Positions 21,629 to 59,581 of a stretch of DNA of 64,000 bases are shown piece by piece. The DNA comes from Escherichia coli (GTDB lineage Bacteria; Pseudomonadota; Gammaproteobacteria; Enterobacterales; Enterobacteriaceae). The stretch lies in NCBI RefSeq assembly GCF_001677475.2, contig NZ_CP015229.1; one strand, 5' to 3'. Positions within the stretch are counted from its first letter, which is position 1. Every line of letters starts with the position of its first letter. Position numbers and translations under genes: made by a program. The notes under the pieces were generated by a model that saw only the letters and a program-made list of their open reading frames with translations, had not been told where the DNA came from and made no database searches.

Positions 21629-21990
21629 CTTGTCCTCATTGAATAAGCGGGGCTGACAACTTTTTCATGGCGAAATTATCACCACGAAACCCAGCATCGG
21701 GGCCACTCCCGGTCCCCAACGCAATCGTTCTCTTTTGTCTGAACTTACCACCGAAACAGACTGTTAACCATAAGGTAAAATTGATCATCACATTAGCTTA
21801 TGGTTAAAAAACGCCAAAATCGCAACAGAATAAAAAACCAAAAAACACACCAGTTTCTATACAAAGATGATGCTATTAGAAAGTTAATTTGAATAAGGCA
21901 ATATTAAGAACTGAAAAAATGTCAAAAAATACTAAATCAAAAAATCATGGCATTAGAAAATATAATGCGAAAACGGAGGTGAAATTAGTT
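21629..21990 (-). promoter_or_regulatory. gcvTHP promoter and upstream control region
   Basis: About 450 bp of AT-rich non-coding DNA upstream of gcvT; in K-12 this region holds the gcvT promoter and the GcvA/Lrp/PurR sites. Individual sites not mapped here. Confidence 0.5.
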
Positions 21991-22000
21991 TATTTCAAAT

Positions 22001-22032
22001 GAGGAAAATCTCCCGGCGAAAAAACCGGGAGA
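22001..22032 (-). terminator. intrinsic terminator downstream of ubiI (end of pepP-ubiH-ubiI unit)
   Basis: Perfect 8-bp stem TCTCCCGG/CCGGGAGA with 8-nt loop, followed on the minus strand by TTTTCCTC. Confidence 0.7.
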
Positions 22033-22075
22033 TGAAAGTGTGATGGGTATCAAATAAACAACAGAGGAAAAATTT

Positions 22076-23278
22076 TTAACGCAGCCATTCAGGCAAATCG
22101 TTTAATCCCATTGCCTGGCGGATAAGTTGCGGCTTAACGCCAGGAAGCGTGTCGGCCAGTTTCAAACCAATATCACGCAGCAGTTTTTTCGCCGGATTGG
22201 TACCGGAAAACAGATCGCGGAATCCCTGCATACCAGCCAGCATCAGCGCCGCACTGTGCTTGCGGCTACGCTCATAGCGACGCAGATAAATGTACTGCCC
22301 GATGTCTTTCCCCTGACGATGCAACCGTTTCAGTTCAGCAATCAGCTCTGCAGCATCCATAAAGCCGAGATTTACCCCCTGCCCCGCCAGCGGGTGAATG
22401 GTATGCGCGGCGTCGCCCACCAGCGCCAGACGATGCGCGGCAAACTGGCGCGCATAACGCCCCGTCAGTGGGAACACCTGACGCGCGCTCTCAACCTTGC
22501 ATAAGCCAAGGCGATTATCAAAAGCGATATTTAACGCGCGATTAAATTCGTCTTCACTTGCCTGCTGCATCCGCTGCGCTTCCTCTGGCGACAGTGACCA
22601 GACAATCGAGCAAAGATGCGGATCGCTAAGCGGTAAAAAGGCCAGAATGCCTTCGCCATGGAAAACCTGCCGCGCCACCGCATCATGCGGTTCTTCCGTG
22701 CGAATGGTCGCTACCAGCGCGTGATGCTGATAATCCCAGAAAGTCAGCGGAATATCGGCTTTGTTGCGCAACCAGGAATTAGCGCCGTCCGCGCCAATCA
22801 CCAGGCGCGCCGTTAACATGCTGCCATCTTTCAGCGTCAGGAAGGTTTCGTTTTCTCCCCAGGCGACCTGCTGTAATTCTGCGGGGGCCAACAGAGTGAT
22901 ATCTGACGACTGATGCGCTTTGTTCCACAGCGCGTAGTGAATCACTGAGTTTTCAACGATATGCCCAAGATGGCTATAGCCCATGCTTTGATCGTCAAAC
23001 GAAATGTGACCAAAACTGTCTTTGTCCCACACTTCCATGCCGTGATAGCAGCTGGCCCTACGAGCGAGAATGTCCTGCCAGACGCCAAGACGGGTGAGTA
23101 ATTTTTCGCTGGCGGCATTGATAGCCGAAACGCGCAGTTGTGGTGGTGCATCCGCCGCCAGAGGTTCCGGTACGCGCTGCTCCAGTACGGCAACGCGTAA
23201 GCCGCTACCCTGTAAGCCGCAGGCAACCGCCAGCCCCACCATGCCGCCGCCAACAATGGCTACATCAACACTTTGCAT
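22076..23278 (-). CDS. ubiI: FAD-dependent 2-octaprenylphenol hydroxylase UbiI (VisC), 400 aa
   Basis: ORF 22076..23278; N-terminal GGGMVG FAD-binding motif. Confidence 0.9.
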   Translation of the reverse strand: MQSVDVAIVGGGMVGLAVACGLQGSGLRVAVLEQRVPEPLAADAPPQLRVSAINAASEKLLTRLGVWQDILARRASCYHGMEVWDKDSFGHISFDDQSMGYSHLGHIVENSVIHYALWNKAHQSSDITLLAPAELQQVAWGENETFLTLKDGSMLTARLVIGADGANSWLRNKADIPLTFWDYQHHALVATIRTEEPHDAVARQVFHGEGILAFLPLSDPHLCSIVWSLSPEEAQRMQQASEDEFNRALNIAFDNRLGLCKVESARQVFPLTGRYARQFAAHRLALVGDAAHTIHPLAGQGVNLGFMDAAELIAELKRLHRQGKDIGQYIYLRRYERSRKHSAALMLAGMQGFRDLFSGTNPAKKLLRDIGLKLADTLPGVKPQLIRQAMGLNDLPEWLR

Positions 23279-47578: not shown

Positions 47579-48249
47579 CGTTAAATCAGGTAACTTATCG
47601 CTGGCCTGGCGCGGCAACGGATTGTCTTTGCGACATTTCTCTGCAACTCAAACAAGGCGAATGGCTGGCGCTGACCGGCGACAATGGCGCAGGGAAATCG
47701 ACGCTGTTACGAGTAATGGCAGGTCTTCTTACGCCCACAGCCGGTACAGTTATGCTGCAACAACAGACGATGAAAAACCTGAAAAACCGCCAGCGCGCGG
47801 CAAAGATTGGCGTACTGTTTCAGGAAGCGGAAAACCAGCTTTTTCACAGCACCGTCGCTGACGAGATCGCATTTGGTTTGAAACTGCAAAAATGCCCGGC
47901 GGATGAAATCACTCAACGTACCCATGCTGCCCTGCAATGCTGTCAGTTAGCAGACACTGCCAGCGCGCACCCGTTGGATCTGCATAGTGCGCAGCGACGG
48001 ATGGTCGCCGTCGCCTGCCTGGAAGCACTCTCTCCGCCACTATTGCTGCTGGACGAGCCGAGTCGGGATTTTGACGAAAATTGGTTGAGCGTGTTTGAAA
48101 GCTGGCTGGAGAAGTGCCGCCAGCGAGGCTCGAGCGTCGTAGCAATCAGTCATGACGCCGCATTTACCCGGCGTCATTTCTCTCGTGTGGTGCGACTGGA
48201 AGATGGTGTAATCAGGAACGTTAATCCACCAGACGATATTCACCCGTAG
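47572..48249 (+). CDS. ABC ATPase (EcfA'-like) with a degenerate signature motif, 225 aa
   Basis: 3' part of ORF 47539..48249; start at MLTLNQVTY (ATG 47572, ATGTTAA overlap with the upstream stop); Walker A GDNGAGKST, Walker B LLLLDEP, H-loop ISHD; signature position reads LHSAQR. Confidence 0.8.
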   Translation: MLTLNQVTYRWPGAATDCLCDISLQLKQGEWLALTGDNGAGKSTLLRVMAGLLTPTAGTVMLQQQTMKNLKNRQRAAKIGVLFQEAENQLFHSTVADEIAFGLKLQKCPADEITQRTHAALQCCQLADTASAHPLDLHSAQRRMVAVACLEALSPPLLLLDEPSRDFDENWLSVFESWLEKCRQRGSSVVAISHDAAFTRRHFSRVVRLEDGVIRNVNPPDDIHP

Positions 48250-48934
48250 CGGTCATCATTAAAGTCAAATTTGCAGGCAGACTCTCTTCCAGCACCCGGC
48301 GAACATTCGGCCCGTCGGTACGGTCATAAAAAGCTTCTGCGTCTGCCAGTGATAACCCTCCCGCCAGCTTGCGCCCCACCAGTCGTTCCCGCAACGCAGT
48401 AGCTGGCGCATTGATAAAGATCGAGAAATCACAAAATTGCGCAAGCTGGCACCACTTCTCGTCGTCCAGCAACAACCAGTTTCCTTCGACGATGACGAGT
48501 GGTGCGGTAACGTGCAACGCATCTTCAACAGGATCATGCTTTTGTCGATCATACTGCGGCCACGCACAATCCCCTTCCACTACCTGGCGCAGGTTTTCCG
48601 CCAGTTTCGCTACATCGAATGTCTCTGGTGCGCCTTTGAAGGGGCGCAATTGATGCGCATCCAGCCAGCTATTGTAATGGTGAAAACCATCCATCGGGAG
48701 TGTCTGAATAGCGGGTAGTTCCGGGTCTTGTTGCGCGAGATATTCCCAGAAGGTGGTTAGGGTAGATTTACCCGTCCCCGGCGGAGCGCAAAGAAAAACC
48801 ACCGTACGCCGCTGCGGATTTACCGTCTGTAAGGCCGCCAGCATACGCAGTAGCGTTTTATGAACATTCTCAATTTCATCATCAGAGTACTGCGCCTGTA
48901 CCTTTAGTCCATTCACCGTCAGTTCGATTTTCAC
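48221..48934 (-). CDS. yggC: P-loop nucleoside/pantothenate kinase-like protein YggC, 237 aa
   Basis: ORF 48221..48934; P-loop GTGKST; 3' end overlaps the convergent EcfA' gene by 29 nt. Confidence 0.85.
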   Translation of the reverse strand: MKIELTVNGLKVQAQYSDDEIENVHKTLLRMLAALQTVNPQRRTVVFLCAPPGTGKSTLTTFWEYLAQQDPELPAIQTLPMDGFHHYNSWLDAHQLRPFKGAPETFDVAKLAENLRQVVEGDCAWPQYDRQKHDPVEDALHVTAPLVIVEGNWLLLDDEKWCQLAQFCDFSIFINAPATALRERLVGRKLAGGLSLADAEAFYDRTDGPNVRRVLEESLPANLTLMMTATGEYRLVD

Positions 48935-49440
48935 GGCGTTAATTCCTTTAAGGTTGTCGTTACTGCCAGCGTCAGCGCCGTTTTGACCATCCCGCTAAAA
49001 CGCGCCTCTGACCAGACGGCGAAATCGGCGAACTTCATCGCTTTCAACGCGTCATAGAGCGTCGCATTGCGGATTATGCTATTGACGTTGCTGATAAAAT
49101 CCCAGGTCATGTCATCGGCAAATCCGGGCATTTCATCCTGTTCGTTCAGGTAATGCCAGAACTGGGAAAAATGCGTGATATCGGCGTACAGCCATTTATC
49201 CATTTTCCCCAGCGCATAAATCAAACGCAGTGCAACATCAATATCGTCAAGCGGGCCGCTTTGGGCGAGTAACGGCTTCACTGCATATTCGACGATCTCT
49301 TCATCATTATCGACAAACAGCGACGGCAGAAACTGGCGTATCCCCTGGAGCAAAATAGAATGCGCAGTTTTCATAAATGAAAATAAATTGTCCTGTGCCT
49401 CCAGTTGCTCAAGCACATCATCTTCTGTCAGCGTCGCCAT
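48931..49440 (-). CDS. yggD: MtlR-like putative transcriptional regulator YggD, 169 aa
   Basis: ORF 48931..49440; 4-nt overlap with yggC. Confidence 0.85.
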   Translation of the reverse strand: MATLTEDDVLEQLEAQDNLFSFMKTAHSILLQGIRQFLPSLFVDNDEEIVEYAVKPLLAQSGPLDDIDVALRLIYALGKMDKWLYADITHFSQFWHYLNEQDEMPGFADDMTWDFISNVNSIIRNATLYDALKAMKFADFAVWSEARFSGMVKTALTLAVTTTLKELTP

Positions 49441-49461
49441 TGGTCTTCCGATAGATCACCA

Positions 49462-50427
49462 TCAATGCAGGGAGTCTATTATATTACACGTTTGGTCCGC
49501 GCCGCCGATCAGTAATGTCTGCGTCCGCACCCCATTCGCCGTCTGTTGGATTCCGTTCACCAACTCGCCGCCCGTCACGCCCGTAGCGCTAAAGAGGATA
49601 TCGTTCCCCCTCACCAGTTCATCGAGCGAGTACACACGGTTAACGTCAACGCCCATTTCCTTGCAACGCTTGCGCTCCTGCTCTGCAATCTGCCGATTTT
49701 CCGTGTAATCCCCTTTAGCCTGACAAAAGTCAATCAGCTCGGCCTGCATATCCCCGCCTAATGCTTTAACGGCACAGGCAGAAATCACGCCTTCTGGCGC
49801 ACCGCCGATGGTGTACATCACATCGTAAGGATTATCCTGCCAGCAGGTCAGCACGCTGGCGGCGACATCGCCATCCGGCAGGGCAAAAACCTTCACGCCC
49901 AGCTGTGTTGCTTCCTCAATTGCGGCACTCAGGCGCGGTTTATCCAGCGTAACCATACGCAGCTTGTCCAGCGGTTTGCCTAACGCTTTCGCCACGTTGC
50001 GCAAGTTGTCCGCCAGAGGCATGGACAGATCAATCGCGCCCGCCGCCAGCCGATTAACAACCAGTTTTTTCATATACATATCGGGCGCGTGTAACAGGCT
50101 ATCTCGAGGGGCGAAAGCCATGACCGCCAGCGCATTGCTCTGCCCCATCGCCACCATCCGCGTGCCTTCAATGGGATCGACCGCGATATCGACTTCTGGC
50201 CCATCGCCTTTGCCCACCTCTTCGCCAATCCACAGCATCGGCGCATGGTCAATTTCTCCCTCGCCGATAACCACTCGCCCACGAAAAGCGACGTCGTTCA
50301 ACGCCTGGCGCATCGCGGTGACCGCCAGGCCGTCGATTTTGTTTTTATCGCCACATCCGGTTTGCGGCCAGGCAGCCAACGCTGCCTGTTCCGTAACGCG
50401 AAATAATGGCCACGCCAGGGACATCAT
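49462..50427 (-). CDS. yggF: class II (GlpX-type) fructose-1,6-bisphosphatase YggF, 321 aa
   Basis: ORF 49462..50427. Confidence 0.85.
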   Translation of the reverse strand: MMSLAWPLFRVTEQAALAAWPQTGCGDKNKIDGLAVTAMRQALNDVAFRGRVVIGEGEIDHAPMLWIGEEVGKGDGPEVDIAVDPIEGTRMVAMGQSNALAVMAFAPRDSLLHAPDMYMKKLVVNRLAAGAIDLSMPLADNLRNVAKALGKPLDKLRMVTLDKPRLSAAIEEATQLGVKVFALPDGDVAASVLTCWQDNPYDVMYTIGGAPEGVISACAVKALGGDMQAELIDFCQAKGDYTENRQIAEQERKRCKEMGVDVNRVYSLDELVRGNDILFSATGVTGGELVNGIQQTANGVRTQTLLIGGADQTCNIIDSLH

Positions 50428-51701
50428 TGCGTGGTCTCCCCAATATCAACGCCAAATTGTGCCAGCAGATATTTCTCGGCCTGTTCATTCCAGATGCCGT
50501 GCGTTTCCTCAACCAACCGCGCCAGCTCTTTAAACAGCGGATCGGTTTTGCCTTTTTCGGCAAAATCGGCAATGGCAGTGAGCGGCATGGTCACGCCGTT
50601 ATAAATGAGTTTTTTACCGCCAGGGATATCCGGCAGATTGAGCACGGTTTCTGGCACCGCATCCAGGCCACCAATATGGGTCACCATAAACGACGGCTGT
50701 AACTGTCCTGTGGCGCTAAGGGCAATCGCCTCTTTCATGTCGTCCGTTGAACCGCCAGATGTACCGACGACGTGCGTGCTGTTGTAATGGACGTTGTAGA
50801 AATTAAACGGCACTTTGAAGTTTTTATCCGTCGGACCGGCAAAGAAGTTCAGACAGCCATCTTCCGCCAGTAATTCGTCAGCCATCTCAACGACAGCAGG
50901 CACCGCCGCATAAACAAAAATGTCATCGAACCCGGCATCTCCTGTAAGCGCCCGCAGCATCTGGACTGGATCGCTCATCCCTTTGGTATTCACATACACC
51001 AGCTCAATGCCTTTACTAGCCGCCAGTTCCACCGGCAGCAGCTTCTGTACCTGCGCCAGGCGTTTGTCGTCGATATCGACCACCACCACCCGCGACGGTT
51101 GTATGCCACCGTTAATGGCGTAATCGATAGCGCCAATGCCCATTGGACCAGCACAGGCCAGCAGTGCAATATTGCCGCCAGGTTTGACGCCCATGCGATG
51201 CTCATAAACATATTGCGTGGTGTGATAATTGGCATGATAAGCGCCAATAATGCAGCACATAGGCTCTGCCAGCGACGCAGCAGCAAAATAAGAGCCGTGA
51301 TACGGTAATACGCAGCCCAAATTAATGGCTACCTCTGGAATAATCATATAGGTGGCGTTACCGCCAAAATATTCGTAGCTGTAGCCCGCTGAATATCCGC
51401 TTGGTAACCCCATTGCCGGTTGCAATACAAAACGCTGGCCTTTTTTATATTTGCCGGTGAGATTTTTACCCACTTCAACAATAACCCCGGCACATTCATG
51501 TCCGGTAATGACCGGATGATTTTCTAAATCGTCGGATACGCGTTTATGTTCACTACCGAGTAACGCCGCTTTCCAGGTGGATAAACAGACGCTGTCAGAA
51601 ATTACACTCACTAACAGTTCATTATCGGTAATTTCTGGCAGTTCAAATTCGCGCAGACGGACATCCCGCTTGCCATAAATAGCAGCAACTTTGGTTTTCA
51701 T
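50424..51701 (-). CDS. yggP: Zn-dependent polyol/sugar-phosphate dehydrogenase (MDR family) YggP, 425 aa
   Basis: ORF 50424..51701; 4-nt overlap with yggF. Confidence 0.85.
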   Translation of the reverse strand: MKTKVAAIYGKRDVRLREFELPEITDNELLVSVISDSVCLSTWKAALLGSEHKRVSDDLENHPVITGHECAGVIVEVGKNLTGKYKKGQRFVLQPAMGLPSGYSAGYSYEYFGGNATYMIIPEVAINLGCVLPYHGSYFAAASLAEPMCCIIGAYHANYHTTQYVYEHRMGVKPGGNIALLACAGPMGIGAIDYAINGGIQPSRVVVVDIDDKRLAQVQKLLPVELAASKGIELVYVNTKGMSDPVQMLRALTGDAGFDDIFVYAAVPAVVEMADELLAEDGCLNFFAGPTDKNFKVPFNFYNVHYNSTHVVGTSGGSTDDMKEAIALSATGQLQPSFMVTHIGGLDAVPETVLNLPDIPGGKKLIYNGVTMPLTAIADFAEKGKTDPLFKELARLVEETHGIWNEQAEKYLLAQFGVDIGETTQ

Positions 51702-51715
51702 TTTTACCTCTGTAA

Positions 51716-53104
51716 TCAGTGTTTATGTTCGGCGGTTAATTGATTAAATAAAGTGTCGAGTTTTGGATCGCCAATATAGTTACTAATCAATATCAGTGGT
51801 TTATCCGTCACACGTTTCACGCGCCCTTCCAGACTGGCATGAGTAACGACGATATCCGCATCCGCAGGCACGTTTTCTATCGCGTAATGTTTTACTTCAA
51901 TTGCCAGCCCCGCTTTTTCCAGGCGTTTACGGAAGGTGGTCGCGCCCATCGCACTGGAGCCCATCCCCGCATCGCAAACAAAGGCGATACGCTTAACCTT
52001 GCTTAACGAGAATGCACCTTCTTGTTTCATCGCCTTAACCGCATTGGCTGACTGAGCAAACTCATATTCGCTCTCCGTTTCCACCGTTTTTTCCATCTTC
52101 AGTATCAGCGAAGTGATAGCAAAGGACACCAGGGTACCTACCGTAACACCGGCAATTGTCGCCAGGAATGAGCCTTTCGGCGTCAGCGCCAGGTAAGCAA
52201 AGATAGACCCCGGACTTGGGCCAGCCACCAGACCACCGTCCAGTAAGTTAAACATCCAGGTGCCAGACATACCGCCCGCAATCATGGCAATAATGGTCAG
52301 CGGCTTCATCAGCACATATGGGAAATACAGTTCGTGGATCCCACCGAGGAAGTGAATAATCATCGCCCCGGGCGCAGAACGTTTACTCATCCCTTTACCA
52401 AACAAGGTAAACGCCAGCAGCAGCCCCAGGCCCGGACCTGGGTTAGAGGCCACCATAAAGAAGATGGATTTACCGTTAACCGAAGCCTGTTGCATTCCCA
52501 GCGGATAATAGACGCCCTGATCGATCGCGTTATTGAGGAAAAGCACTTTCGCCGGTTCATTGATGACTGACAGCAGAGGCAGATAACCCGCATGTACCAG
52601 CGCCTCAATACACTCTTTGACGAAAGTATTGGCAATTAACACCGCCGGGCCGATCACTTCAAAACCCAGCAGACAAAGGAGCATCCCCGCGATACCTAAT
52701 GAGAAGTTATTGATAACCATCTCAAAACCGGCAGGTATGCGTTTTTCCAGTGCCTTATCGACATATTTTATGACCAGACCACCGAGCGGCCCCATAATCA
52801 TCGAACCAAGGAACATCGGGATCTCTGCGCCGACGATCACACCAATAGTACCTATTCCGCCCATGACCGCCCCGCGTTTACCGCCGACCAGATGACCACC
52901 GGTAGAACCAATCATCACGGGCAATAAATAGGTAATCATCGGGCCGACAATTTTGGCGAAATGTTCATTCGGCAGCCAACCGGTGGGAATAAATAACGCA
53001 GTTATAAAACCCCAGGCAATAAAAGCACCGATATTGGGAATGACCATTGCAGTCAAAAAGCCCCCAAAAGCCTGGACCCTTGCACGAGCAGACTTGTTTT
53101 CCAT
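51716..53104 (-). CDS. cmtA: PTS mannitol-family EIICB component (cryptic), 462 aa
   Basis: ORF 51716..53104; polytopic N-terminal domain plus C-terminal EIIB with conserved Cys (AFVCDAGMGSS). Confidence 0.9.
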   Translation of the reverse strand: MENKSARARVQAFGGFLTAMVIPNIGAFIAWGFITALFIPTGWLPNEHFAKIVGPMITYLLPVMIGSTGGHLVGGKRGAVMGGIGTIGVIVGAEIPMFLGSMIMGPLGGLVIKYVDKALEKRIPAGFEMVINNFSLGIAGMLLCLLGFEVIGPAVLIANTFVKECIEALVHAGYLPLLSVINEPAKVLFLNNAIDQGVYYPLGMQQASVNGKSIFFMVASNPGPGLGLLLAFTLFGKGMSKRSAPGAMIIHFLGGIHELYFPYVLMKPLTIIAMIAGGMSGTWMFNLLDGGLVAGPSPGSIFAYLALTPKGSFLATIAGVTVGTLVSFAITSLILKMEKTVETESEYEFAQSANAVKAMKQEGAFSLSKVKRIAFVCDAGMGSSAMGATTFRKRLEKAGLAIEVKHYAIENVPADADIVVTHASLEGRVKRVTDKPLILISNYIGDPKLDTLFNQLTAEHKH

Positions 53105-53131
53105 AATATTATCCTGTAGAGGAGAGAGTCA

Positions 53132-53575
53132 TTATCCGCGGCTGATTATGTCCGCTAATTGTTTTTCTGATGATGCTGTTAAGAGTTGTTCGAGTATTTC
53201 TTCTTCGCTCAGTAATTCACTTAACGCCTGAATAGCGCCAATGTGCGAATCGGCATCGGCAGCAGAAAGCCCGATGAGTAATTTAATCGGTTCGTCATTC
53301 CCCGGGAAATAAACGCCTTGTTTAAGTAACGTTAAAGACATCCCGGTTTTAAGCGCCCCACATTCCGGTCGAGCATGAGGCATTGCCACGCCTGGTGCGA
53401 GAATATAATAAGGACCATTGCTGATGGTGGAGTCTTTAATAGACTGAATGTAATTCTCGCTGATATAGTTTTTATCCAGCAATGATGCCATCGAGAAATC
53501 GATAGCTTCCTGCCAATCTTTTGCTGAATGTATAACTGAGATTGATGATTCTGGAAAATAATCAATAAGCCGCAT
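53132..53575 (-). CDS. cmtB: PTS mannitol-family EIIA component (cryptic), 147 aa
   Basis: ORF 53132..53575; EIIA-Mtl active-site His region (VAMPHAR). Confidence 0.9.
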   Translation of the reverse strand: MRLIDYFPESSISVIHSAKDWQEAIDFSMASLLDKNYISENYIQSIKDSTISNGPYYILAPGVAMPHARPECGALKTGMSLTLLKQGVYFPGNDEPIKLLIGLSAADADSHIGAIQALSELLSEEEILEQLLTASSEKQLADIISRG

Positions 53576-53951
53576 AAATTATCCTTATTTTATTTTTAGG
53601 GTACCGTCCGGCGGTAAAAATAAAATACTCGTGCGGTTTAATGAAAGCAATTGGGTACGCGAGAAGAAAAACCCCATGAACAAAAATAATAAAACTTTAA
53701 ATAACAACAACATGAAATTGATATTTTTAAAGTCAACTTTGTATTTGTTATGTTTATCACAAAATCAACATTTTGATTGTTGTTGTATTTGTGATGCATA
53801 TCGCCATTTATTTATTGAATGTCCGAAAACATACTTTTTTAATGCAATGTTTTTTCGCTATACCCCTTTATAGATTCTGAATTCTCACCTGTCGGCTATT
53901 TTCTCCTCACCTCATGTGACATATTCCCCACTTTACTCAAGGAAGATTCAT

Positions 53952-54860
53952 ATGAAAGCACCTGTTTCATTAACCTCATTTCGCCCACAAAAATCTATTG
54001 CTATCGCCATTGGCGTGCTTGCCGTGGTTGTGCTGCCATTTCTCTCGTATTACACCGTTAATGAAGGTGAACGCGGCATTTTGCTGCGCTACGGAAAAAT
54101 CGTAAAAGTTGCCGAGCCGGGTCTGGGTTTTAAGATCCCTTTTATGGAAAGCGTGGAGAAAATTTCCACGCGTAATCAGGCTGTGGTTTATCAGGGATTA
54201 CAGGCCTACAGCCGCGACCAGCAACCGGCACAAATGACAGTATCAGTCAGCTTCCACATTAAACCTTCAGAAGCTGGCGCAGTTTATACAACCTACAACA
54301 CCATTGAATCTTTAAAAGAGCGTCTGATCGTCCGCCAGCTGCCAACCCAACTGGAGAACGTTTTCGGGCAATATACAGCCATCAGCGCGGTACAGGATCG
54401 TACAAAACTGGTTCAGGATCTGCAAAATGCCATGCGTAAAGCCGTTGTTGGCCCGGTGGTGATTGATGGTGTTCAGATTGAAAATATTGATTTTTCTGAC
54501 GCTTATGAAAAATCGATTGAAGATCGAATGAAAGCAGAAGTCGCCATTGCCACACGTAAGCAAAATCTGGAAACAGAGAAAATCCAGGCGCAAATAGCGG
54601 TAACTCAGGCCCAGGCAGAGGCAGACAGTAAACTGGCGGCAGCCAAAGCAGAAGCGGAAACTATTCGCGTAAGAGGCGCGGCAGAGGCTTAAACTATTCG
54701 TTTAAAAAGTGCGGCTGAAGCAGAAGCGATCCGCCTGCGCGGTGAAGCTCTGCGGGATAATCCCGGACTTGTTGCCCTCACCACTGCTGAGCGTTGGGAC
54801 GGTAAGCTACCCGATACCATGATCCCCGGCAGTACAGTTCCGTTTATCTCTACTAAGTAA
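53952..54860 (+). pseudogene. SPFH/band-7 (prohibitin-like) membrane protein gene interrupted by an in-frame TAA at 54690..54692
   Basis: ORF 53916..54692 (start probably ATG 53952 with AAGGAAG upstream); N-terminal TM helix, SPFH-like core, AEA-rich tail; the same frame continues 54693..54860 (55 codons); the stop sits where the upstream repeat copy has GAA. Confidence 0.65.
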
Positions 54861-54885
54861 AAAAAGGGCCGATTTCGCGGCCCTT
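54859..54885 (-). terminator. tktA intrinsic terminator
   Basis: Stem GGGCCG/CGGCCC (54866-54883) followed on the minus strand by a 7-nt T-run (plus-strand A-run 54859-54865). Confidence 0.7.
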
Positions 54886-54905
54886 CTCACAAAGCATCTT
54901 ACCGA

Positions 54906-58018: not shown

Positions 58019-59581
58019 TCAATTCGCTTCGTAGATTGCTTTATCCGGTGTATCCGATTGCACCTCTACTACATCGGCAGTGCTTACGCCACAAGCCCAG
58101 GCAAAAGCCGTCTCTGTTCCTTCAGGTAATGGAGTATCCCAGGGTAAAGTACGCCACGGACTCCCCTGCTCTTTTAATAAAGATGTAATGGCTTTCTTAA
58201 AAAGAATATGGGTAATCAGGTGCCGTTTATCCGTTGCTTTCCAGTACCAACGGGCCAGCAAAAAATGTCCGGCCAATTCGCGCCAGCTTCTGTAATGTTG
58301 CTGTACGCGTCTGGCTGCCAGCATCGAAAAATCGACCATTTCACGCTGGGTAATGTATCCCACTTGCGCCCCGCTATTACATAGCATGACAAAGCGCACC
58401 ATATCCCAGGCACAAAAATCTATGTCGCATATTTTACGTCGATTTTTTCTGACCATCTGTAGCTGCCACAAACGCTCTTTCGCTTCGCTACTTAATTTCG
58501 CGTTCTGAGCTAATTGCTGAGCGAACGCGCTATATTCAGCATCCGGCATTTCGCTATCGTTTTTGATCTGTTCTTCATAAACTGAACGATGCCCTGCTAC
58601 AAACAAAGCTAAGAGTTGCTCAAGTAACGAATCCCGATCAAAGACGCCCCACATGTCAGCAAGGGACTCAACTTCACTTTTGCAATCATTCTCTGCTTCC
58701 ACGGAATCATCATTAACGACTCGTCGCGCCCAGTGATTGTTACCCGCAATGGCATAAGGCGCGCCGACTGCCATTGCCCAACGTTCGGCAGCAGGAATTT
58801 TTTGAATTGAGGGATCTTTACAGGATGCTTTGAAAAGGCGATGTCCGGCGAACACCAGGCCATAACCAATCCACAAAACAGCCACCAAGGCGAGAATAAG
58901 TATTATCGCTACCAGATAAAGGGCATATTTGCCTATTGTCAGTAAGACATCCAGCCAGGAAGAGTCTGGCTCCGTAACTGTTTGCTCCACCGATGTCAAA
59001 GGGGACTTACTGACCCGCTCTGGCGCGGTCCTCGTCAACAGAGGGAAATCCCTATGTTGCTTGAATGAGCGTTTTTTAAGCAAATCTATTTTTTTCTGCA
59101 CCTCATCAGTAACCCGACCGTTTTTTTCAAACTCATGTAACGATGCAAAATCAATCGCCGCAATCTTCCATTTACCATCCCCTTCACGGATTAATTCCAT
59201 TGGAATATCAATATAAGATTGGTGACCAAAAAAAGCACCAATCTGCGCCTTGTCGCCTTCGACGAAGGTCGCTAAAGGATCGCTATAACTGGGGAAACGT
59301 CGTTTACACGTTTTGGGTGACTCTTGCCAGTATTTCAGTACAGGCTCCATTAAAGCAGGCGTAAATACTTGCTGCATTTCCACAAGGCGATCGTGCGAAT
59401 CTGTGCTGGTGACAAACTCAGGGCCACATAATGCGCGATAACTCTTTTTGACGACAGAGGAAATAGCTTCTTTGTCTTGTTGCAGCTGTGCGGCAATTTT
59501 CTGTTTTTCTGCTCTATCGCAGCCAGTTGATAAAAGAAATAACAAACAAAGAAGAGGCTTCCAGGGAAGAGTGCGTTCCAT
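58019..59581 (-). CDS. hypothetical membrane protein, 520 aa: N-terminal signal/lipobox-like segment, one internal TM helix, large C-terminal domain (possibly DUF1266-like)
   Basis: ORF 58019..59581; N-terminus MERTLPWKPLLCLLFLLSTGC; internal hydrophobic segment YALYLVAIILILALVAVLWIGYGLVFAG; domain assignment is from memory and tentative. Confidence 0.7.
   Translation of the reverse strand: MERTLPWKPLLCLLFLLSTGCDRAEKQKIAAQLQQDKEAISSVVKKSYRALCGPEFVTSTDSHDRLVEMQQVFTPALMEPVLKYWQESPKTCKRRFPSYSDPLATFVEGDKAQIGAFFGHQSYIDIPMELIREGDGKWKIAAIDFASLHEFEKNGRVTDEVQKKIDLLKKRSFKQHRDFPLLTRTAPERVSKSPLTSVEQTVTEPDSSWLDVLLTIGKYALYLVAIILILALVAVLWIGYGLVFAGHRLFKASCKDPSIQKIPAAERWAMAVGAPYAIAGNNHWARRVVNDDSVEAENDCKSEVESLADMWGVFDRDSLLEQLLALFVAGHRSVYEEQIKNDSEMPDAEYSAFAQQLAQNAKLSSEAKERLWQLQMVRKNRRKICDIDFCAWDMVRFVMLCNSGAQVGYITQREMVDFSMLAARRVQQHYRSWRELAGHFLLARWYWKATDKRHLITHILFKKAITSLLKEQGSPWRTLPWDTPLPEGTETAFAWACGVSTADVVEVQSDTPDKAIYEAN

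Follow-up and report, generated by a model that had tools for sequence, protein, structure and literature searches.

A probable CRP-dependent control region in the AT-rich divergent spacer between the cmt operon and an SPFH gene of Escherichia coli

The bgl operon of E. coli is a cryptic PTS operon that is silenced by H-NS, dependent on CRP and activated by IS insertion. Like cmt, the mtlADR operon encodes a mannitol-type PTS and has at least two CRP sites upstream, and both operons encode a protein of the MtlR/MltR family; they are different paralogues, unlike in the number and spacing of their CRP sites. Two CRP sites each are listed at mtlA and at the divergent yibI (Haycocks et al., 2015, Table 1; PMC4287617). 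For the cmt operon itself, a CRP site, CGTGTTGTAGATCACA, was located by Genomic SELEX (SELEX-chip) in the spacer labelled 'cmtBA-yggPFDC< <tktA', and mutation of crp lowered the activity of a K-12 cmtB-lacZ reporter (Shimada et al., 2011; PMC3105977). A CRP ChIP-seq peak was subsequently reported at cmtB in ETEC H10407, with the site TGTGATCTACAACACG, which is the SELEX site (Haycocks et al., 2015; PMC4287617). In EHEC in bovine gut contents, cmtB was up 2- to 3-fold relative to M9-glucose, and the cmtB promoter is therefore not simply silent.

The DNA analysed here, referred to as the window, is a 64-kb stretch of E. coli sequence in which a six-gene operon, cmtB-cmtA-yggP-yggF-yggD-yggC, spans positions 48221-53575 on the minus strand, with gaps or overlaps between the open reading frames of at most 27 bp. 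The cmtB product matched NCBIfam NF007358 with 318 bits (cut-off 192), and among the other products are a Zn-dehydrogenase (yggP), a GlpX-type FBPase (yggF), an MltR-family regulator (yggD) and a kinase (yggC). The sole sizeable non-coding DNA upstream of the operon is the spacer 53576-53951. Because the start codon of cmtB, on the minus strand, extends to 53575 and the ATG of an SPFH gene, preceded by an AAGGAAG ribosome-binding site, begins at 53952 on the plus strand, this interval is exactly the divergent cmtB/SPFH spacer, and both the interval and the divergent layout given in the first-pass annotation of this DNA were exact. The features referred to below are as follows.

53132-53575, minus strand: cmtB, PTS mannitol-type IIA, 147 aa, first of the six operon genes
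53576-53951: AT-rich divergent spacer, GC 0.314, probable control region of the cmt operon and putative control region of the SPFH gene
53576-53654, minus strand: cmtB-proximal segment, with ribosome-binding site AGGA (complement of 53582-53585) and leader or core-promoter candidates
53586-53627: perfect 13-nt inverted repeat, TATTTTATTTTTA / TAAAAATAAAATA, directly upstream of the cmtB ribosome-binding site
53631-53873, plus strand: spurious 80-aa open reading frame with a GTG start
53730-53736, minus strand: AAGTCAA, candidate cmtB -35 element (TTGACT on the minus strand, 53736-53731), near-invariant in eight aligned sequences
53739-53802, plus strand: 20-nt direct repeat, two copies (53739-53758 and 53783-53802), 85% identical and 44 bp apart
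53746-53761: CRP-type site 1, TGTTATGTTTATCACA, PWM score 15.4, rank 2 in the 64-kb window
53790-53805: CRP-type site 2, TGTGATGCATATCGCC, PWM score 13.0, rank 3 in the 64-kb window
53813-53843, plus strand: conserved block TATTGAATGTCCGAAAAC (53813-53830) and sigma-70-like candidate TTGAAT (53815)-17 nt-TTTAAT (53838), putative SPFH promoter
53952-54860, plus strand: SPFH/Band-7 ('prohibitin family') gene, Pfam Band_7 E = 9e-34

The GC content of the spacer was 0.314 as against 0.516 in the window, corresponding to z = -4.4 among all 376-bp segments, and just 0.2% of the 376-bp segments in the 64 kb matched its low GC. The AT maxima of the entire window were all located inside the spacer (88%, 82% and 76% AT in segments of 50, 100 and 200 bp, respectively) and the TpA density was approximately twice the window average. 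The sliding-window calculation therefore bears out the first-pass description of a strong AT outlier. When compared with 24 crude intergenic spacers of the window (mean GC 0.43, sd 0.064), the cmtB spacer ranked lowest, and it is therefore only approximately 2 sd out relative to other spacers; another spacer interval, 21731-22106, had a GC content of 0.316, near that of the cmtB spacer. Repeated TTGTT/AACAA tracts and long A/T runs had also been pointed out in this DNA. The former were nominally enriched, with three plus three copies versus 2.7 expected from dinucleotide shuffles (P = 0.04), whereas A/T homopolymer runs of at least 5 were not significantly so (seven versus 4.7 from shuffles, P = 0.14). 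The TTGTT tracts derive from the 20-nt direct repeat, each copy of which holds the left half of one CRP-type site.

Scoring of CRP-type sites was carried out using a PWM built from 106 ChIP-seq sites (Haycocks et al., 2015, Table 1) with the cmtB site left out, for which the training median was 13.2. Among the approximately 64,000 positions of the window, sites 1 and 2 ranked second and third (consensus TGTGA-N6-TCACA), and shuffles of the spacer attained a score of 15.4 with P = 0.0015. The top-ranking site of the window, TGTGATGGGTATCAAA (22039-22054), is identical to a site reported between gcvTHP and visC (Shimada et al., 2011), and the spacer that holds it, 21629-22106, is the second most AT-rich in the window (GC 0.32-0.36). 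Positions homologous to site 1 scored 13.2-16.3 in five of the seven other alleles, including those of K-12 and E. albertii, and positions homologous to site 2 scored 12.1-17.0 in six of the seven; with this window included, site 1 reached at least 13 in six of eight sequences and site 2 at least 12 in seven of eight. In K-12 the two homologous positions scored 13.2 and 13.9. The positions of both sites and their 44-bp spacing are fixed in E. whittamii, Escherichia sp. MOD1, E. albertii and K-12, within a central spacer that is just 49-54% identical in K-12 and E. albertii. The right half of site 2 is weaker in this allele (TCGCC) than in its homologues, and the positional homologue of this site is the experimentally bound K-12/ETEC site TGTGATCTACAACACG. 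The experimental CRP data were all obtained with the K-12-type allele, whose central segment is approximately 50% identical to the present one, and from the sequence comparison we infer that the CRP sites would work in this allele as they do in K-12. Of the regulatory reading offered in the first-pass annotation, the AT-rich divergent control region stands; CRP, with two strong conserved sites and published K-12 data, had been missed.

An alignment of the eight sequences displayed near-invariant islands in a fast-evolving background, two of the islands being the CRP-type sites. This pattern bears on the reading of the spacer as non-functional AT drift of unconstrained non-coding DNA, which would account for the approximately 50% identity of the central 190 bp between this allele and that of K-12 or E. 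albertii, and with which an A/T run count not above that of shuffles is in keeping. However, the islands TATTTGTGAT, ATCACA, AAGTCAA and TATTGAA-GT-CGAAAAC were near-invariant in all eight sequences (in AAGTCAA the second base differs in K-12 alone), the SPFH-proximal blocks were conserved at 0.9-0.99 and the CRP-site scores were maintained across species, and drift is considered very unlikely. The extreme AT content is attributed to weakly constrained promoter and upstream DNA lying between conserved protein-binding islands.

The cmtB region of K-12 and ETEC H10407 (PMC3105977, PMC4287617) occupies the orthologous position, has a similar GC content (0.33 versus 0.31 here) and carries both CRP-type sites at homologous positions. 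It differs in the remainder of the spacer and in what lies beyond it. In K-12 MG1655 the SPFH gene is absent and 313 bp separate cmtB from tktA; since tktA lies on the far side, the K-12 spacer is not divergent. K-12 shares with the present spacer just the first 78 bp (53576-53653, 99% identical); beyond 53654 its spacer is collinear but approximately 50% identical as far as approximately 53845, after which it ends in a different tktA terminator. K-12, to which the cryptic status of cmtAB had been referred, is thus an unsuitable reference for this locus. The drop in identity between the haplotypes from 99% to approximately 50% occurs at 53654, the flanks being 97-99% identical. Strain TW10598 carries an IS1 element inserted exactly at this haplotype breakpoint (53647-53655) with a 9-bp target duplication, GCAATTGGG; the co-occurrence may be a coincidence or may reflect a recombination or insertion hot spot. 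As the two haplotypes, with and without the SPFH gene, are deeply diverged, regulatory data from K-12 transfer only via the CRP sites and the proximal 78 bp.

The full spacer and the SPFH gene are present in approximately 1,825 of 5,426 complete E. coli genomes, the others being K-12-like and sharing 53576-53653 only. Such polymorphic presence, together with IS elements at the locus in some strains, could be taken to indicate a horizontally acquired islet, consisting of the spacer and the SPFH gene, that entered certain strains between cmtB and tktA. However, E. albertii, E. whittamii and a cryptic-clade Escherichia share the collinear gene order cmtA-cmtB-spacer-SPFH-tktA, and SPFH and tktA are neighbours in Pseudocitrobacter as well. 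The K-12 arrangement thus represents a derived loss and the AT-rich DNA an ancestral feature, which already contradicts an islet. In addition, the SPFH coding region has a genome-like GC content of 45-54%, and K-12 keeps a diverged, collinear AT-rich segment with both CRP sites. Horizontal acquisition is accordingly judged highly improbable. All Escherichia versions of the spacer had GC contents of 0.30-0.33. Over the 24 kb from 40000 to 64000, the best match of the window among the 5,426 genomes was just 97.5%, and the source lineage is therefore absent from those genomes. An IS200C element in the best-matching strain, EFF60, was considered and set aside, as it sits in the SPFH-tkt gap and not in the spacer. 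Elsewhere in this part of the window, loiP and speB, neighbours in K-12, flank a 520-aa open reading frame (58019-59581, minus strand) with no NCBIfam match; a DUF1266 protein is annotated somewhere in that stretch in the E. coli genomes that match best.

The cmtB-proximal segment 53576-53654 was 99% identical to that of K-12; identity was 85-99% for the remaining E. coli and cryptic-clade alleles and 67% for E. albertii. It matches the p-cmtB-R primer sequence of Shimada et al. The perfect 13-nt inverted repeat within it encloses a small GC hairpin, TACCG-N5-CGGTA; the repeat is almost unchanged among the aligned E. coli and cryptic-clade sequences, and E. albertii retains the inner hairpin. 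A role as an operator or as a leader hairpin is conceivable. The repeat might also be taken to suggest that the spacer encodes a product of its own, either a small or cis-regulatory RNA or the 80-aa protein, whose reading frame is open in the window and in one close allele. However, one to nine in-frame stops interrupted that frame in six of the seven other alleles, its start is GTG, its N/K-rich product matched no Pfam family, and none of the five SPFH-bearing RefSeq genomes examined annotates it; the first-pass judgement that it is a composition artefact is upheld. An Rfam search with permissive filters returned no match at E <= 1, and the candidate cmtB leader (156 nt) folded no better than its shuffles (z = 0.31), for which reason a structured RNA was dropped. 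That the spacer encodes a product of its own is regarded as extremely improbable.

Promoter candidates were scored using a sigma-70 PWM with approximate hexamer frequencies. On the plus strand, one candidate exceeded background, with a score of 10.8 versus 7.6 +/- 1.3 for the best match in random 431-bp chunks and a predicted start near 53850; the conserved block 53813-53830 within which its -35 element begins is conserved in all alleles, K-12 included. No candidate above background was identified on the cmtB strand of the spacer, which is consistent with an activator-dependent cmt promoter. The candidate -35 element TTGACT scored 6.9, within background, and is without a good -10 element. A simpler promoter and terminator consensus scan identified no promoter-like site in the spacer at its thresholds, and the portion of the K-12 transcription start site tables of Kim (2012) that was searched contained no cmtB entry. 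Taking TTGACT for cmtB and TTGAAT for SPFH as best-guess promoters, the CRP sites are placed symmetrically at approximately -52 and -96; these predicted positions are not canonical activating positions (-41.5, -61.5, -71.5, -82.5, -92.5). A cmtB promoter inside the proximal 78 bp would place the CRP sites 140-185 bp upstream. Visual inspection revealed a match to the IHF core, WATCAANNNNTTR (53763-53775), between the two CRP sites; the match was not conserved across alleles and was given no weight.

On the far side of the spacer, the SPFH gene is truncated in the window by a GAA to TAA change at 54690-54692, codon 247 of 302 when aligned to an intact 302-aa E. coli gene. The nonsense change did not occur in any of 1,829 complete E. 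coli genomes that carry the gene, and the truncation is therefore private to the lineage of the window. The type strain ATCC 11775 is among the carriers of the gene. The gene that, according to the first-pass annotation, the spacer may also control thus has a premature stop here. In Pseudocitrobacter, Enterobacter and Mixta, where the SPFH gene is located away from cmtB, the DNA upstream of it is 51-56% GC and contains no CRP site. Since the SPFH gene elsewhere is without a CRP site and K-12 keeps the segment without the SPFH gene, the AT-rich CRP segment is assigned chiefly to the cmt side. The SPFH and tktA genes are convergent, and between them lies a hairpin, GGGCCG-ATTTCG-CGGCCC (54859-54890), which, with a T-run on the minus strand, looks like the tktA terminator and is entirely unlike that of K-12.

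The first-pass annotation had proposed that the spacer is H-NS-bound, silenced DNA, in keeping with the cryptic status of cmt, and had suggested a comparison with H-NS ChIP data. As a fuller explanation, the spacer would primarily be an H-NS nucleation and silencing region that keeps both the cmt operon and the SPFH gene off. The AT maxima and the elevated TpA density given above are what such a region might display, and the K-12 transcription unit cmtBA-yggPFDC is flagged as H-NS-bound (promoter, intergenic or coding) in S2 Table of Higashi et al. (2016; PMC4720273). However, the flag comes without a position and yggD itself was scored as unbound in the same dataset (PMC4720273), so that the flag applies to the transcription unit and does not point to the spacer. 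Within E. coli the central spacer is 72-93% identical as compared with approximately 97% in the flanks, and diversification of this kind has been tied to H-NS-bound DNA (Higashi et al., 2016). The missing cmtB entry in the searched portion of the Kim (2012) start site tables points weakly in the same direction. Against this, the H-NS motif TCGATAAATT occurred in the spacer as a single match with two mismatches and was not enriched, no AA/TT helical periodicity at 10-11 bp (A-tract phasing) was detected, cmtB-lacZ was active and CRP-dependent in wild-type K-12, cmtB was inducible in EHEC, and the spacer DNA is ancestral to the genus and not foreign. The supplements of Freddolino (2021) contained no cmt entry, a mention of cmtA in Aquino (2017) refers to genic Nac peaks and has no bearing on H-NS here, and the literature search found no main-text report of derepression of cmt in hns mutants. 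Neither the motif search nor the phasing analysis lends support to the proposal; as the primary role of the spacer, H-NS silencing is possible but doubtful, and silencing as the cause of cmt 'crypticity' is a conjecture.

H-NS and CRP are compatible explanations and do not exclude one another. By analogy with bgl, and given a content of 74-82% AT, H-NS occupancy is plausible as an added repressive layer; in view of the H-NS flag on the transcription unit in one dataset, repression may prevail in vivo. The likeness to bgl is one of analogy alone and consists in an AT-rich region with one or more CRP sites upstream of a 'cryptic' PTS sugar operon, to which the IS1 in the cmt spacer of the single strain TW10598 adds a further bgl-like trait; it differs in that the cmt spacer shows no enrichment of the H-NS motif and in that cmt is not known to have hns-dependence, a mapped silencer or an IS-activation phenotype. 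Extended to its full form, the analogy would make cmt a bgl-type silencer, in which a filament of H-NS covering the 74-82% AT centre blocks both CRP sites and both divergent promoters, the operon is silenced and not gene-defective, IS1-like insertions relieve the silencing, and the haplotype divergence stems from H-NS-associated diversification or from old trans-lineage recombination. This full form is thought unlikely.

The reading favoured here is that the spacer is probably an ordinary cis-regulatory region of two divergent units, CRP-dependent on the cmt side. The central 190 bp (74% AT) would present two cAMP-CRP sites 44 bp apart; in the absence of glucose, cAMP-CRP would bind both sites and the bound complex would activate a weak, activator-dependent cmt promoter. 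Activation of this kind is the best-supported mechanism because of the published binding in K-12 and ETEC and the crp-dependent reporter. CRP might also act on the SPFH promoter, and a specific regulator might act on the palindrome or the conserved blocks, for which the operon-encoded MltR-family protein YggD is a candidate.

The spacer is essentially an already characterised CRP-dependent control region. For annotation, the region would be labelled as the CRP-dependent control region of cmtBA-yggPFDC and not as a gene, with little significance beyond that. If co-regulation by H-NS were demonstrated, cmt would be a second bgl-like cryptic PTS operon, a result of moderate specialist interest.
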